From Candidatus Liptonbacteria bacterium (GTDB lineage Bacteria; Patescibacteriota; Minisyncoccia; UBA6257; JACOXY01): a DNA stretch of 57,993 nt. Position 1 is the first letter of the stretch. Every line of letters starts with the position of its first letter. Under the pieces are notes generated by a model. That model was not told the origin of the DNA, searched no databases, and worked only from the letters and a program-made list of their open reading frames with translations. The stretch lies in the NCBI GenBank assembly GCA_016182095.1, contig JACOXY010000001.1, positions 1-57,993 of the forward strand. Reading direction: 5' to 3'. This document shows positions 1 through 24,285 of the stretch, in pieces. The position numbers and the translations under genes were made by a program.

Positions 1-177
1 ACGGCCTGGGCGGTGCACAAGAAAACGATTCACTGTCGGCCGAAAAATCAACCAAATTAATGCGTTAATCCCTCGCACGAATTAGGGGTATAACAAATTA
101 ACGCGTGGTGACCTGCCAAATGTAGCTACCTAAAACAAATTTATTGCATTATGCCGTCCGATGTTGTACGATACTCA

Positions 178-249
178 CGCGGGGAAGTGTAACGGTTGCA
201 CGCGAGGCTCATAATCTCGAGGTAGTGGGTCCAATTCCCACCCCCGCAA
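178..249 (+). tRNA. tRNA-Met(CAT), probably initiator (C1:A72 mismatch); CCA not encoded
   Basis: Manual cloverleaf: acceptor CGCGGGG/CCCCGCA, D stem GTGT/GCAC, anticodon stem CGAGG/TCTCG with loop CTCATAA, T stem GTGGG/CCCAC. Confidence 0.9.
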
Positions 250-277
250 CTAAGAAAAGTAAATACTCGACAATTTA

Positions 278-430
278 CCTCGTGGCAAGCCTTCGGGCGA
301 GCCGCGAGTCAAAAATGGCCCCCTGGGCTATTTTTGTGAGCCACGCGATGAATTACGTAATAATTCATTTTGCGTGGCCGCGCAAAATTGTGAGCTCCGC
401 AAAATAAAGTCTTTGATTTTATTTTGCGAG
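278..430. repeat. Cluster of hairpins downstream of tRNA-Met
   Basis: Inverted repeats AAAAATGGCCC/GGGCTATTTTT, GCCACGC..ATGAATTA/TAATTCAT..GCGTGGC and CGCAAAATAAA/TTTATTTTGCG; begins with CCTCGTGGCAAG, similar to 35920. Confidence 0.55.
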
Positions 431-500
431 ACAAGTAGAATAATTATTATGTATTTCGTCTATATTCTAAAAACCAAAACAAAGTATCACTTTTTGTATT

Positions 501-755
501 ATGTGGTTCACTTATCTAATTCTTTGCAAAGATAATAGTATTTATACGGGCATCACTAATGATCTGGCAAGGCGTTTTAATGAGCACAAGGAAGGCAAGG
601 GCGGCCACTATACAAGTTCCCATAAGCCAATTAAATTTTTGCATTCCGAACAATTTGAAACTAGAAGCGCGGCATTAAAAAGAGAGGCACAGATAAAAGA
701 ATGGAAAAGAGAGAAGAAATTGAATCTTATTAAATTTGGAAAGCCTAATATTTAG
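501..755 (+). CDS. GIY-YIG nuclease family protein (UPF0213/YhbQ-like)
   Basis: WFTYLILCKDNSIYTGITNDLARRFNEH, and ALKREAQIK. Confidence 0.9.
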   Translation: MWFTYLILCKDNSIYTGITNDLARRFNEHKEGKGGHYTSSHKPIKFLHSEQFETRSAALKREAQIKEWKREKKLNLIKFGKPNI

Positions 756-874
756 AATGAGCGACGTTTAATCATTAATTATTTTAAAAAATGGGGTTGA
801 AAAAAACGCGGAATTGGTGGAGCGAAAATATTAAATACCCTGGAAGTCTTTTTTAAGGAACTAGAACCGCAAAT

Positions 875-903
875 TTGACATTATTGCGGAAACAGTGTAA
901 TAT
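875..903 (+). promoter_or_regulatory. Sigma70-type promoter for the small ORF at 924
   Basis: TTGACA-17 nt-TAATAT; AAGGAG at 918-923. Confidence 0.5.
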
Positions 904-923
904 TTAGCTAGTCCAGCAAGGAG

Positions 924-1118
924 ATGCCTCACATGCTAACAGTCGGAGATCGCGTAAAGTTCAGTAATGGCTATTTGGATTGCTGGAACACCAAAGATAG
1001 TGCAAAGTACGCGTCATGGCGCGGAGTCGTGACAAAAGACAATTGTATGCACGGCAAGGTGCTATGGGATGACGGGGTAGAAAGAGGAGTATTTTTCCCG
1101 GACCTGGAAGCGGAATAA
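924..1118 (+). CDS. Small hypothetical protein (start may be ATG 933)
   Basis: Has promoter, SD and downstream terminator; SH3/KOW-like look (VGDRVKF...GVV...VLWDDG) is only a guess. Confidence 0.65.
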   Translation: MPHMLTVGDRVKFSNGYLDCWNTKDSAKYASWRGVVTKDNCMHGKVLWDDGVERGVFFPDLEAE

Positions 1119-1135
1119 TCCATAATTCTCGCACC

Positions 1136-1172
1136 GAACCCCAGCGAGTTATAAATAAGGGGTTCTTTTTTT
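1136..1172 (+). terminator. Intrinsic terminator
   Basis: GAACCCC...GGGGTTC followed by T7. Confidence 0.6.
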
Positions 1173-1427
1173 ATTTTTGTACAAAAATAAAGAGGCATAA
1201 TCGCCTCTTTTTAGTAACATCCTAGTCATGGTATAGAAAAGTTGGATCGCAAGCGCTGTAACCACAATGCTCACAATGCTCATAAGCAACCCCAAAATAT
1301 CAACACCTTCATTTAATAAACTGTGTAGCGGCCCAACGGTAACATTTACATACACTAACCGAAAAATAATCACCGCAAGTAAAACATAAACCATAAAAAA
1401 TGGGACGGCCTTTCTCTTTCTTGCCAT
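1149..1427 (-). CDS. Hypothetical two-TM membrane protein
   Basis: Two hydrophobic segments; 8 nt downstream of rseP on the same strand. Confidence 0.5.
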   Translation of the reverse strand: MARKRKAVPFFMVYVLLAVIIFRLVYVNVTVGPLHSLLNEGVDILGLLMSIVSIVVTALAIQLFYTMTRMLLKRGDYASLFLYKNKKRTPYL

Positions 1428-1435
1428 GCTTTAAC

Positions 1436-2347
1436 TTACCACGTAATCCAACGACTAATGTCGTTCAAAATTGTAAAAGACATCAGTGCCAATAATAGAA
1501 ATAAACCTGTTTTTTGCAGTATTTCTCTTGGGCGCTTTCTCATTGGTCGTCCCATGAGAGCTTCAAATGGCAGAAAAATCCACAAATATCCTCCATCTAA
1601 AGCAGGGATTGGGAGTGAATTCAGCACAGCTAAATTGATAGAAAGAAAGGCGGTAAATTCAAGAAATGATTCCAGGCCATTAATTTGCCAAGCATCGTGA
1701 GCAAGCTTCCCGATCATTATTGGGCCGCCAAGCTCTTTCACGCTTATTGCCCCTGAAAACATTTTGGGAATTGCGAGCAAGATAAGAGCGGCGTAATTGT
1801 AGGTTTCAACAAAAGCTTTTTTAATAAGATTTTCGTGGCTGCGCATCTTTACAGGATGGGGTACTGCAATATCAGCCACTTTATCTCCAGAGAGGGTGTC
1901 CGCCTGCGTAACTGGAGTGTCAGGCATTACTTCATCCACAACATTTGTCAAAACCACCTTGCCATAAAAAACCGAGCTCGCGAAAAGCGCGCAAAATCCT
2001 AAAAGCAGGTTAAATCCCGAGCCAGCCAAAACAATCAAGAATTTTTGCCAAAAGCGTTTCCCCCCAAATGTTCTTTTGGATGGAATTTTCTCGCCATCCA
2101 CTCCATCTTCTTGTTCCGAAGAATCTTCGCCAGCCATCTTTACATAGCCGCCAAGAGGCACCAAAGAAAGCAGATATTCGGTCTCGCCGATTTTTTTGGA
2201 TATGATTCGCGGGCCAAAACCGATGGAAAATTTGAGAACCTCTACGCCCATGAGTTTCGCGAACACAAAGTGGCCGAACTCGTGAAATCCAATCAAAACA
2301 CCTAATACAACAATAATAGGAATGGCGTAGGAGAGAACCGTCTCCAA
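1436..2347 (-). CDS. rseP: RseP/M50 zinc metalloprotease (site-2 protease) with reduced PDZ region
   Basis: HEFGH zinc motif, FSIGFGP, LGGYVKM, NSLPIPALDGG. Confidence 0.9.
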   Translation of the reverse strand: METVLSYAIPIIVVLGVLIGFHEFGHFVFAKLMGVEVLKFSIGFGPRIISKKIGETEYLLSLVPLGGYVKMAGEDSSEQEDGVDGEKIPSKRTFGGKRFWQKFLIVLAGSGFNLLLGFCALFASSVFYGKVVLTNVVDEVMPDTPVTQADTLSGDKVADIAVPHPVKMRSHENLIKKAFVETYNYAALILLAIPKMFSGAISVKELGGPIMIGKLAHDAWQINGLESFLEFTAFLSINLAVLNSLPIPALDGGYLWIFLPFEALMGRPMRKRPREILQKTGLFLLLALMSFTILNDISRWITW

Positions 2348-2436
2348 GTTTACGCTCCGTTAAATGCCAAAAAACTGCTGTTATCATAGCAGACTTTTTT
2401 AAAATTGAAAAGCGGCGGATTTTGAGATATTATCTA

Positions 2437-2616
2437 TAGACCTTTTACACAATTCCTTTTCTACTGCAATTTCCATATTTTGCCTGCCTGCGCAGGCAGG
2501 GCTCCGGCTTTGTAAAAATTTCTTGAAATGTACCCTGTATATTCCTGCAAAATTTTTACTTCACCTCGCCTAAAATCTGGAAGTTTCGTTACGAAAAGAA
2601 TTGCGCAAAAGGTCTA
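2437..2616. mobile_element. MITE-like non-autonomous element, copy 1 (180 bp)
   Basis: Terminal inverted repeats TAGACCTTTT...AAAAGGTCTA; the interior matches the reverse complement of 8071-8233. Confidence 0.75.
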
Positions 2617-2686
2617 ATTTATATTTTAAGATTGGCGCGGGGCAGGCAGTGGTAGAGCGTTCCGTTCATCCCCCACTCTTTTTTAA

Positions 2687-2758
2687 GGGCACTTAGCTCA
2701 GTGATAGAGCGTTCCGTTCACATCGGAAAGGTCACAGGTTTGATCCCTGTAGTGCCCA
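2687..2758 (+). tRNA. tRNA-Val(CAC)
   Basis: Cloverleaf GGGCACT/AGTGCCC, GCTC/GAGC, TTCCG-TTCACAT-CGGAA, ACAGG-TTTGATC-CCTGT. Confidence 0.92.
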
Positions 2759-2968
2759 CACTATAGCAAAAAGAGTGGGGGAGAAAGGTCACAGGTTTGA
2801 TCCCTGTAGTGCCCACACTATAGCAAAAAGAGTGGGGGAGAAAGGTCACAGGTTTGATCCCCGCAAGGTGCACCATAGAAATGAGTGAGGGACGGGGGTT
2901 ACAGATTCAAATCCTGTACCACCCACCAAGACAAAACAAATGACTGAGGGAGAAGGGTCGTAGGTTCG
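2726..2968 (+). repeat. 57-bp tandem duplication of the tRNA 3' half (starts at 2726, 2783, 2840 partial) plus further tRNA 3' fragments
   Basis: Direct comparison; fragments end in CACCA (2875) and ACCA (2928); linker GAGTG(G/A)GGGA-like at 2773, 2830, 2883, 2942. Confidence 0.85.
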
Positions 2969-2981
2969 CATAAAATACGTC

Positions 2982-3010
2982 AAAAACGCCCCTTTGAGTG
3001 GGGTGTTTTT
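2982..3010 (-). terminator. Intrinsic terminator of rplJL (possibly bidirectional)
   Basis: AAAAACGCCCC-loop-GGGGTGTTTTT. Confidence 0.65.
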
Positions 3011-3034
3011 GTACAGGAAGTTGGTGAGCCATAA

Positions 3035-3400
3035 TTACTGCAACTCCACCGTAGCTCCTGCCGCTTCAAGTTTCTTCTTCAGTTCTTCCGCGTCCGTTTT
3101 CTTCATATCAGCTTTCACTGGCTTTGGAGCGCCATCAACCAAGTCTTTGGCCTCTTTAAGTCCAAGCCCGGTTGCTTCACGCACTGCTTTAATTACATTT
3201 ATCTTTTGGGCGCCGCCGGCTTTCAAGACAACTGTAAAACTGTCTTTTTCTTCCACCGGGGCTCCAGCGGCGGCACCAGCGGCCATAGGAGCGGCGGCTT
3301 GAATTCCCCACTTTTCCTCAAGAGTTTTTACAAGCTCCGAGACCTCCACTACTGACAATTTTTCTAATTGCTCAACAATGGAATTATATTTTTCGTTCAT
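3035..3400 (-). CDS. rplL: 50S ribosomal protein L7/L12
   Basis: [35 protein letters not shown]. Confidence 0.97.
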
Positions 3401-10511: not shown

Positions 10512-11792
10512 CTATTTAATACCCTCATATTCGCGGATGGTTAATTGTGAATCAAGCTGCTGCATGGTTTCCAGCGCAACGGCAACAACAATTAAGAGAG
10601 AGGTGCCACCGATGCTAAATGACCCTGCGCCAAGCAAACTTTGCGTAAGTATCGGCAAGACGGCAATGGCGCCCAAAAATATGGCTCCAAACAGAGTTAT
10701 GCGATTTATTATTTTTGCCAAAAATTGTCCGGTTGACTCCCCGGGCCTTATGCCAGGAATAAATCCGCCGCTCTTCTGGAGATTTTTTGAAATCTCTTGG
10801 GGATCAAAGGTTACGGCCGTATAGAAATATGTAAAGGCGACCACAAGCACAAAATAGAAAGATCCGTAAAGAATTTGGTTGGCAAGAAATCTATTAACTA
10901 AATCAATAACCTTGGAGCCCAATTCCGGAGAAATAATCGCGGCTATGATTTGGGCAAAAAATTGCGGGAAAAGCAAAATGGAGATCGCAAAAATGATTGG
11001 GATGACTCCGGCCTGGTTTACCTTGAGCGGCAGATAGGAGGCGACGCCGCCATAAATCTTATTGCCTCGTATTCTTCTCGCGTAGGATACGGGTATTTTG
11101 CGTTCTCCCTGCTGAATAAATACTACTCCGGCGATAACCACGATGCTCACTATCACAAAAGCCGCGTACGTGGGAATATCTGATGTAGTATAAGTAGAAA
11201 ATGCTTGAGCCACGCTTTGAGGTAGCTGACTTACAATGCCGGCAAAAATGATTAGTGAAACACCATTACCGATTTTCTGCTCGGAAATTAACTCACCGAG
11301 CCACACCAGCACCATGGAACCCGCAGTCACAATTAAAACGTTTGAAAGCATCTCAAATGAAAGTGGCGTAAGAGCCGGCAAAACTCCCTGTGATGTGAGA
11401 AGGTTCAAGAATCCATATCCCTGAAGCGCAGCCAATGGAACGGTTAAATATCTTGAGATGCGGTTAAATTTTGCCCTGCCCTGCTCCCCCTCTTCATAGT
11501 AAATTTTTTTCAGGTTAGGAAAAATCATGGTCAGAAGCTGCATGATTATCGTAGCGGTAATATATGGCCCCACGCCCAACATGGCGATAGAGAGATTTGA
11601 AAGACCGCCGCCTGAAAATATGTTAAGAAAACTAAAAAGTTGGCTGGAGCCGAAAAACTGCTCCAAGGCAGTAGCATCAACACCCGGTATTGGCACTGCG
11701 GCCAAAACGCGAAAAACAATAAGAATCCCCAGAACAACGAGGATTTTTTTTCTTAAATCAGGAATTCGAAAAATGTTCAGGATTTTGTTCAT
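10512..11792 (-). CDS. secY: Preprotein translocase SecY
   Basis: LGVGPYITATI, GNGVSLIIFAGI, VNQAGVIPIIFA, FIPGIRPG. Confidence 0.98.
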   Translation of the reverse strand: MNKILNIFRIPDLRKKILVVLGILIVFRVLAAVPIPGVDATALEQFFGSSQLFSFLNIFSGGGLSNLSIAMLGVGPYITATIIMQLLTMIFPNLKKIYYEEGEQGRAKFNRISRYLTVPLAALQGYGFLNLLTSQGVLPALTPLSFEMLSNVLIVTAGSMVLVWLGELISEQKIGNGVSLIIFAGIVSQLPQSVAQAFSTYTTSDIPTYAAFVIVSIVVIAGVVFIQQGERKIPVSYARRIRGNKIYGGVASYLPLKVNQAGVIPIIFAISILLFPQFFAQIIAAIISPELGSKVIDLVNRFLANQILYGSFYFVLVVAFTYFYTAVTFDPQEISKNLQKSGGFIPGIRPGESTGQFLAKIINRITLFGAIFLGAIAVLPILTQSLLGAGSFSIGGTSLLIVVAVALETMQQLDSQLTIREYEGIK

Positions 11793-23825: not shown

Positions 23826-24138
23826 CGCCCTTTAAAGCTCCGCGTTTTTTTCTTGATTGGAGCTTTTTGATGTTCTCTGACGCTATTTCGCTTAAAGAAA
23901 CGTTTATTTCCGCGGCAACCTGCGACACATACCATAATACATCTCCCAATTCCTTTGAAATATCTTCTTTGTGCGTATCAGAAAGAATGCCGCCATGATC
24001 GCGAAAGATTTTTTTAACCTTGCCCGCGACCTCTCCGGCTTCGTTTACAAGTCCCATCGTGGGATAAACCATTCCGTGGCCAATAGCCGGATATATCGCC
24101 GTCTCCTTAGTTAGTTTTTGGTATTCGTCAAAAGTCAT
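23809..24138 (-). CDS. MazG-like nucleotide pyrophosphohydrolase
   Basis: GLVNEAGEVAGKVKK, KELGDVLWY, NIKKLQSR. Confidence 0.9.
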   Translation of the reverse strand: MTFDEYQKLTKETAIYPAIGHGMVYPTMGLVNEAGEVAGKVKKIFRDHGGILSDTHKEDISKELGDVLWYVSQVAAEINVSLSEIASENIKKLQSRKKRGALKGDGDNR

Positions 24139-24285
24139 CCCTCACTCTTCACGCATTAATCGCTTCGACAAACGCGATTTTTTAATGTTAATGACTAAAT
24201 CATGATGTCAATCTCTTATATAATAACATAAAATAAAAACCCAGGCTTCAAGAGTGAGGGATAAAAAAATAAGGGCGTTATGCCC

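Follow-up and report, generated by a model that had tools for sequence, protein, structure and literature searches.

A tRNA-Val(CAC) gene enclosed by hairpin arms and tRNA-Val pieces in a Candidatus Liptonbacteria genome

The tRNA-Val(CAC) array and its surroundings

The window, that is, the whole stretch of DNA analyzed here, comprises 57,993 nt of the Candidatus Liptonbacteria bacterium assembly GCA_016182095.1 (contig JACOXY010000001.1, contig 1 below; positions 1 to 57,993, forward strand). The organism is an ultra-small (CPR) bacterium with the GTDB lineage Patescibacteriota; Minisyncoccia; UBA6257; JACOXY01, and its genome (G000) is 0.89 Mb in size and 97.5% complete, with 43 tRNA genes. 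Between positions 2647 and 2968 lies an intact tRNA-Val gene amid tRNA pieces and copies of a 10-nt motif, and every part that a sequence-only reading of the window had described was found where that reading had placed it. The ORFs neighboring the array match profiles of an M50 peptidase, L7/L12, and L10.

At the center of the array is the live tRNA-Val(CAC) gene (2687 to 2758, plus strand), which matched Rfam RF00005 with 66 bits, was called at 2687 to 2759 by ARAGORN, and does not encode its CCA. According to ARAGORN, it is the sole tRNA gene with a CAC anticodon in the genome. To its left, sequence comparison identified a 5′ piece of an older tRNA-Val on the same strand (2647 to 2668), spanning tRNA positions 13 to 35 and stopping after the second anticodon base. 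This piece is identical to the live tRNA at 21 of its 22 nt and to the un-nested tRNA-Val(CAC) of a relative (L002) at all 22. It had been described as a 5′ half; the piece is real, but it is less than half a tRNA, being without the acceptor and the 5′ strand of the D stem (positions 1 to 12). Next comes the left hairpin arm of the live cassette (2669 to 2683, plus strand; TCCCCCACTC followed by T5), separated by a 3-nt spacer from the start of the live gene at 2687. Behind the gene, a 9-nt tail leads into the right hairpin arm, which ends in GAGTGGGGGA (tail and arm, 2759 to 2782, plus strand; arm, 2768 to 2782). All 15 nt of the left arm are complementary to 2768 to 2782 and also to 2825 to 2839, and RNA folding prediction placed the arm stem in both the minimum-energy and the centroid fold (z = -4.7). 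The live cassette is thus 114 nt long, with 15-nt arms and no ORF.

To the right of the live gene stand four more units on the plus strand, each of whose 3′ pieces begins at tRNA position 41 or 43. The nearest, layer 3 (2783 to 2839), consists of a 3′ part (positions 41 to 73) identical to that of the live tRNA, followed by the same tail and right arm, and is an exact 57-nt repeat. TRF confirmed the tandem unit reported earlier, with 2.4 copies of 57 nt at 100% identity over 2726 to 2861. Layer 2 (2840 to 2892) contains a chimeric 3′ piece (2840 to 2875), a 7-nt tail, and the arm remnant GAGTGAGGGA. The first 22 nt of this piece are those of the live tRNA and the remainder comes from another Val-like tRNA with an encoded CCA; its T-stem halves do not pair, so it is not a gene. 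Layer 1 (2893 to 2951) contains the 3′ piece of a third tRNA (2893 to 2928; a T arm with a G53-to-A defect, an acceptor, and CCA), a 13-nt tail, and the arm remnant GACTGAGGGA. Layer 0 (2952 to 2968) is the start of a fourth 3′ piece, covering positions 41 to 57 and cut in the T loop. The isotypes of the layer 1 and layer 0 pieces were assigned with a reference tRNA set biased toward Val, and the matches were weak and Val leaning; the best match of the layer 1 piece is a tRNA-Val(UAC), and the best matches of the layer 0 piece are Val tRNAs at 14 of 17 positions. The chimeric 3′ end, the different T arm and acceptor, and the further T-arm start listed in the sequence-only reading all recur here as layers 2, 1, and 0.

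Several trends run through the series. First, the arm remnants decay outward, from two copies of GAGTGGGGGA to one of GAGTGAGGGA and then GACTGAGGGA. Second, the divergence of the 3′ pieces from the live gene rises with their distance from it. Third, one left-hand layer survives compared to four right-hand layers. Fourth, the 10-nt motif precedes all four 3′ pieces, as had been claimed, with one mismatch in the last copy. Allowing up to one mismatch, this 10-mer occurs 13 times in the window compared to 3.5 expected, a number reached by none of 100 shuffles, and 5 of the 13 copies lie within about 280 nt (2669 to 2951). Finally, no target-site duplication was found at the window's junctions, where 5 target nucleotides are missing.

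The exact 57-nt repeat is probably not a binning artefact, because two independent assemblies break exactly there. Both are Logan assemblies of other sequencing runs; their contigs encode an identical L7/L12 protein, are identical to window positions 2832 to 3034, and end at 2832. This position is the start of the second copy of a 30-nt stretch (2775 to 2804, identical to 2832 to 2861) beyond which the copies diverge. We read the stop as a branch in the assembly graph; both continuations, the arm followed by the live 3′ copy and the arm followed by the chimeric piece, would therefore be present in the reads of those runs. The earlier argument that the divergent fragments cannot be an assembly artefact is supported.

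The flanks of the array contain other structures. Just upstream, an inverted repeat search found a 180-nt MITE-like element with 45-nt inverted ends (2437 to 2616), which is unrelated to the cassette and may have removed the left-hand layers. This element has an internal palindrome (CCTGCC...GGCAGG); contig 23 has a homologous copy of it within the tRNA-Asn nest, and contigs 9, 12, 14, and 15 have short matches. Downstream, the same search found a hairpin with T runs on both sides (2981 to 3011), common to the array and to the convergent rplL gene (L7/L12; 3035 to 3400, minus strand). Read by eye, this hairpin is a two-way terminator; it is absent from the output of the terminator scan. It contains GAGTGGGG and may be the remnant of a further right arm. 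Near the left end of the window, positions 178 to 249 hold an initiator-type tRNA (CAU anticodon, C1-A72 mismatch) that scored 51 bits with Rfam and was missed by ARAGORN. A group I intron at the array was considered and rejected, as a permissive Rfam search of positions 1 to 3100 found only the two tRNAs.

Nested tRNA genes in the genome and in its relatives

The array is not the only nest of this kind. Among the 43 tRNA genes of the genome, 8 are flanked by inverted repeats whose score reaches or exceeds the 95th percentile (score 9) of a control drawn from random positions, and 7 of these 8 score 10 to 18. The nested genes are those for Val-CAC, Val-UAC, Glu, Thr, Pro, Asn, Ala, and Arg, and all eight lie between cognate tRNA pieces in the same orientation. 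The arm type of the window also brackets tRNA-Glu (contig 16) and tRNA-Thr (contig 10), with the cognate pieces outside the arms. A second arm type, CCCCGT(T)AG..., brackets tRNA-Val(UAC), Pro(CGG), Asn, Ala(CGC), and Arg(GCG). The insertion point is in the anticodon loop in most cases, in the T loop after G53 in Asn, and in the D loop in Arg. Arm sequences vary among the loci while their complementarity is retained, and the orientation was constant in 13 of the 13 nests observed.

Some other insertions were seen in tRNA genes. Outer tRNA copies with a second hairpin insertion exactly after G53 occur on contig 5 (6560 to 6740), on contig 23 (43530 to 43900), and in a genome of another family (L014 of G004, 270 to 340); these insertions have the left end CC(C/T)GCCCCG and, as cargo, nothing, about 110 nt, or a whole tRNA cassette. 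On contig 15 (9673 to 9943, minus strand, and 10819 to 11122), ARAGORN with introns allowed found two tRNA genes with 197- and 217-nt insertions in the anticodon loop, which resemble group I introns.

Relatives show what the Val-CAC site can look like with and without a nest. Five relatives of the same order (L003, L004, L006, L008, and L011) have a plain, arm-less tRNA-Val(CAC) gene after rplL on the same strand, and these genes represent the empty sites. The same arrangement was noted for L021; in the window (compared over 2687 to 3400), the array is on the strand opposite to rplL and convergent with it. A genome of another family (G132) has a one-layer Val-CAC nest beside rplL in which both junctions are as in the window, namely, ...CCGTTCA | TCCCCCACTCTTT and AAAGAGTGAGGGA | GAAAGGTC. 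The same two junctions occur in the metagenome contigs L148, where the outer tRNA-Val is complete on both sides, and L149, where two units of arm plus 3′ piece follow the live gene, as in the window. Hence, the motif does accompany tRNA fragments elsewhere, at tRNA-Glu and tRNA-Thr in this genome as well as in G132, L148, and L149, an association on which the sequence-only reading had depended. A pattern search of 301 genomes found the arm pair of the Val-CAC nest in only 5. An 18-nt degenerate junction pattern tried for scanning contigs was discarded as too loose, giving chance matches from unrelated phyla.

The four Val-CAC nests also show what was inserted into what. All of them lack the same 5 nt of the target, positions 36 to 40. 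Their inner tRNAs all differ from one another (69% identity between G000 and G132), and the anticodon stems of these inner tRNAs are compensated. The outer 3′ piece in G132 is nearly identical to the ordinary tRNA-Val of L002 (local score of 31 over 33 nt). Given this match to an ordinary gene, which the 5′ piece of the window shows as well, and the differences among the inner tRNAs, a foreign, unrelated Val copy lies within a resident-type gene. Comparable nests exist for other Val tRNAs. A Val(UAC) nest cut after base 35 is common to the genome under study and to a genome of another genus (G003); its outer halves are well kept in the latter, and there is a matching acceptor change in the former. 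A genome of another family (G004) has a Val(GAC) nest in which the arm type and the cut after base 35 are as in the Val(UAC) nest.

These comparisons bear on two rival explanations. In one of them, the rearrangement was purely local, with a single old hairpin multiplied by slippage, unequal crossing-over, and gene conversion. Out-of-register recombination is indeed the best explanation of the exact 57-nt repeat and of the homogenized 22-nt start of the next piece. However, the Val tRNAs from which the outer pieces derive are clearly distinct, differing in their acceptor and T stems and in whether CCA is encoded, and the tails of the outer units differ in length. Moreover, the same junctions surround unrelated inner tRNAs in G132, L148, and L149, and a better match of outer pieces to the tRNA-Val of other lineages than to any plausible ancestor of the live gene was partly seen (the L002 matches). 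We consider it highly unlikely that local events account for the whole array. In the other explanation, the locus is a device that acts at the RNA level: the tRNA is released by way of a processing stem formed by the arms (for RNase III, for example), and the outer pieces serve as functional split-tRNA halves or as tRNA-like RNAs with a regulatory role. Folding of the stem is predicted, RNase III is present in the genome, and both the complementarity of the arms despite their sequence drift and the well-kept outer halves of the Val-UAC nest in G003 are in keeping with such a role. Against it, the genome encodes no RtcB ligase and no splicing endonuclease (no PF01139 or PF01974 match at 97.5% completeness), and the outer pieces in the window, being truncated, chimeric, or broken in the T stem, are unable to fold as tRNA halves. 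A processing role would also leave the origin of the pieces unexplained. As an origin of the array this reading is very improbable indeed; processing of the stem is possible as an added property. A split or intron-containing tRNA of the archaeal type was rejected for the same lack of RtcB and splicing endonuclease and for the truncated or chimeric outer pieces.

Hairpin-ended elements and the small GIY-YIG nucleases

The ends of the cassette arms, TCCCYCACTC and GAGTGRGGGA, are also the ends of a dispersed element family. The sequence GAGTGAGGGA occurs 52 times in the 0.89-Mb genome compared to 1.7 expected. Most copies are the two ends of ORF-less elements of about 120 to 130 nt with inverted arms of about 19 nt, of which there are about two dozen. 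Twenty copies of GAGTGAGGGA are followed by TG, and in 19 of these 20 the resulting ATG opens an ORF of at least 60 aa; the opposite end of the elements usually adjoins a stop codon. Elements of this size (at 24138 to 24261 in the window, on contigs 7, 9, 15, and 21, and on others of the genome) occupy the space from the stop codon of one gene to the ATG of the gene that follows. Their ATG-side arm contains a mini-ORF (ATG, four codons, and a TGA within GAGTGAGGGA) whose end lies 3 nt ahead of the host start, an arrangement that resembles a built-in device for translational coupling, left over from the last codons of the GIY-YIG ORF.

The wide occurrence of the arm ends limits how the pieces at the array can be read. 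The sequence-only reading had offered, as one possibility, a mechanism that captures tRNA 3′ ends behind a fixed motif. That idea is not supported: what was taken for a linker is one side of a hairpin, its right arm, and the left arm remains in place at 2669 to 2683; the same arm ends bound many elements without any tRNA. A CRISPR-like or transposon-homing arrangement of repeat and spacer was set aside in the same way, the repeat being half of a hairpin present at about 50 other sites. The other possibility offered was scars of integration and excision. Displaced 3′ ends downstream of a tRNA gene are a classic mark of integrase-driven elements, and repeated integration of prophages or islands, each leaving a displaced 3′ end (attR), might produce a series of them; decayed serine-recombinase elements do lie at other tRNAs of the genome. 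However, there is no PF00589 or PF00239 match on contig 1; elsewhere in the genome, contigs 9 and 16 carry one Xer-like tyrosine recombinase and one complete serine recombinase. Only 17 to 24 nt separate the pieces, neither a displaced 5′ piece nor arms complementary across the live tRNA would be expected, what is repeated is not the 3′ part alone, and the linker is common to about 50 sites with no tRNA link. The part of the claim that holds is repeated insertion at one tRNA gene, whereas the integrase part is not supported, with no recombinase on the contig and the 5′ piece and inverted arms unaccounted for. We regard an integrase origin as very improbable.

Longer relatives of these elements encode a nuclease domain. 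Apart from UvrC, the genome encodes five small GIY-YIG ORFs. One of them, P0001 on contig 18, is 86 aa long, matches PF01541 only, and lies inside a 289-nt element whose arms start with TCCCTCACTC; the ORF stops at the TGA within GAGTGAGGGA, and the three bases after it start the ATG of the host gene. PHROGs and NCBIfam comparisons gave generic GIY-YIG similarity only, with no further domain in the 86-aa protein. A decayed copy of the P0001-type element is on contig 2, and a GIY-YIG element with CCCCG-type arms is on contig 5. The 124-nt element at 24138 to 24261 of the window still encodes the last residues of the GIY-YIG ORF and is a deletion derivative. By its structure, the cassette shows the hallmarks of a MITE: inverted ends, small size, no ORF, ends shared by multiple copies, and a longer coding relative, the 289-nt GIY-YIG element. 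Another GIY-YIG ORF in the window (501 to 755) was dropped as a member of the family, since no convincing arms were found. It is preceded, within 449 to 755, by the apparent first codons of another GIY-YIG ORF (MYFVYILK...), and this sequence may represent one nuclease gene inserted in another.

The family is widespread. Of 121 genomes sampled from the order, 93 have homologues of P0001, and the copy number is often high. Of 30 GIY-YIG ORFs of the order that were fetched, 23 have inverted arms of 12 to 22 nt and lie in elements of 271 to 324 nt with C-rich left ends and G-rich right ends. In one of them (L175), the arm is identical to that of the Val-UAC, Pro, and Asn cassettes of the genome under study. 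Such elements are also found in or on tRNA genes. In L149, a GIY-YIG element sits in the T loop of an outer tRNA fragment. In L171 and L173, the element is on the 5′ end of a tRNA, where its terminal GGG rebuilds acceptor bases 1 to 3 and 4 nt are repeated, and in L178 it follows the 3′ CCA of a tRNA. The 4-nt repeats flanking the elements on live tRNA ends in L171, L173, and L178 (G069, G063, and G064) are CCAG, CCTG, and TCCA. A GIY-YIG element of the same arm type as the window's, 67% identical, is present in G132. Five GIY-YIG elements of that arm type were examined and they occupy five different gene boundaries, which led us to reject classical homing to one reused host site. Judged by these five boundaries, the behavior of the family as a whole is closer to that of a transposon preferring loop tips and stop/start junctions than to that of a classical homing gene. 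Most elements have no target duplication, no identical cassette was found at two sites, and in none of the 42 loci fetched does a single arm pair enclose both a nuclease ORF and a tRNA.

It may be asked whether the nuclease ORF is mere cargo and the same stacked cassettes were moved by a RAYT (Y1 family) transposase. The genome has one RAYT-like gene (238 aa, PF01797), which is flanked by a 23-nt palindrome whose halves resemble cassette arms of the CCCCGTAG type, and lack of target duplication is typical of Y1 transposases. The window's arms, of the TCCCCCACTC type, are without the GTAG tag and are not the palindrome of the RAYT gene. In addition, Y1_Tnp is present in 36 of the 121 genomes compared to 93 for the small GIY-YIG ORFs, no Y1_Tnp match was found in genomes such as G026, G038, and G006, which have arm-bounded GIY-YIG elements, and the nuclease ORF is physically inside the arms. 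We think a RAYT an unlikely, though conceivable, mover of the cassettes. The RAYT-like gene region (contig 18, 85340 to 85615; L013, 1214 to 2001) also contains copies of the perfect 23-nt palindrome, whose halves resemble CCCCGTAG arms end to end.

Origin of the array and its place among known systems

The explanation that we favor, and consider reasonably probable, is that small hairpin-ended tRNA-Val cassettes entered the anticodon loop of the resident tRNA-Val one after another, at least three times and probably four, and so built up a stack at the locus. In each cassette, two complementary arms enclose a complete tRNA-Val gene. The anatomy shows that each insertion divides the gene already present after its anticodon base 35, that the incoming copy takes over, and that the older 3′ part moves to the right together with the previous right arm, a displacement that yields the series of right arm plus 3′ piece with the youngest nearest to the live gene. 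Most of the left-hand partners (5′ piece plus left arm) have been deleted. The youngest unit may have arisen by re-entry of the cassette into its own tRNA or by out-of-register recombination; the latter is favored because the 22-nt start of the next piece is homogenized.

How the cassettes move can be considered in the light of their relatives. We infer that they are ORF-less relatives of the elements of about 290 nt that have the same arm ends and encode only a GIY-YIG nuclease domain of about 86 aa. In the most likely mechanism, the nuclease of the GIY-YIG elements would break an exposed loop of a tRNA gene, and the break would be repaired, in a homing-like manner, by copying a cassette flanked by tRNA halves. 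Repair by copying from a nested donor would explain why like is found inside like (8 of 8), why the orientation is constant, and why the junctions are fixed. However, selection for a working, expressed tRNA could yield the same bias. Other points count against repeated insertion or its proposed mechanism, among them the single left-hand layer, the general lack of target duplication, and the failure to find one cassette at two sites or an element combining nuclease ORF and tRNA. The same 5 nt missing in four nests could reflect common descent of one old nest. The GIY-YIG proteins appear to be bare catalytic domains with no DNA-binding domain, and we know of no joining activity for the GIY-YIG fold. 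The array is inverted relative to rplL compared to the relatives. Finally, tRNA-Val(UAC) may also read GUG, which makes the argument that a break would be lethal unless the gene is replaced a weak one for the Val-CAC gene.

Parts of this arrangement have counterparts in known systems. Bacterial MITEs and REP/REPIN sequences (Correia/NEMIS; REPIN-RAYT) are small, ORF-less, multicopy hairpins with conserved ends and longer coding relatives; Correia elements duplicate TA, and REPs carry a GTAG tag. The cassettes are like them in size, hairpin, and ends and unlike them in their tRNA cargo, their cognate-loop target, and the lack of GTAG; MITEs and REP/REPIN sequences are not known to carry genes as cargo or to target the loops of cognate tRNAs. 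In phage T4, SegB is a free-standing GIY-YIG homing gene in the tRNA gene cluster, and repair of its break copies the element along with neighboring tRNA genes; this is likewise a selfish nuclease gene linked to tRNA genes. Seg proteins and I-TevI are 200 to 250 aa long and have a DNA-binding domain and no inverted arms, whereas here the protein is about 86 aa, the element is bounded by arms, and the window's cassette is ORF-less. Closer to the present organism, Tsurumaki et al. (2024, PMC11270868) described small GIY-YIG ORFs in CPR rRNA genes; the insertions that carry them belong neither to the group I nor to the group II introns and are located at the tops or bases of stem-loops. Both cases concern small GIY-YIG ORFs at stem-loops of structured-RNA genes in CPR bacteria. 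That study placed GIY-YIG outside spread by homing and did not mention tRNA genes, inverted arms, or tRNA cargo.

Two further systems target small-RNA genes. Dada DNA transposons of fish are described as inserting into multicopy tRNA and snRNA genes (PMC8869645); they share site-specific insertion into small-RNA genes with the cassettes, but they are eukaryotic and transposase encoding, rely on the multiplicity of the target, and bring no replacement. The other system is the tRNA-dependent lysogeny of actinobacteriophages (Guerrero-Bustamante and Hatfull 2024, PMC10865867). There, too, a broken gene is replaced by the element's own copy; here, by contrast, the element is 100 to 140 nt long and the replacement is at the break itself. 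In the phage case, integration reportedly inactivates the host tRNA gene, and the phage is said to have its own copy elsewhere in a prophage that has an integrase. Full-text literature searches found no published account of bacterial tRNA genes lying within cognate ones, and the locus points to a way of replacing tRNA genes from within that is apparently undescribed. The window adds the four-layer record and the direct tie of the cassette arms to GIY-YIG elements.

These observations have practical consequences. Annotation pipelines and tRNA finders will miscount or miss genes at nested loci, assemblers break at such arrays, and CPR phylogenies based on tRNAs may mix resident and incoming copies. 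The tie to GIY-YIG elements makes the question testable, as one 86-aa protein and one hairpin suffice for an assay. More broadly, tRNA genes are among the most conserved genes, and their change is usually thought to come only from point mutation or whole-gene transfer. The locus suggests that a tRNA gene can be overwritten in place by a mobile cassette of 100 to 140 nt, with four generations preserved. A wider view, which we raise tentatively as the less probable but possible extension, is that the GIY-YIG elements of about 290 nt are autonomous "hairpin transposons" that cut at gene boundaries and at stem-loop tips within tRNA and rRNA genes, and that the tRNA cassettes are their cargo-swapped, nonautonomous derivatives. 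Together they would drive a continual replacement of tRNA genes from within across the CPR, of which the arrays would be the fossil record, and the GIY-YIG elements would then be the smallest self-mobilizing DNA known.
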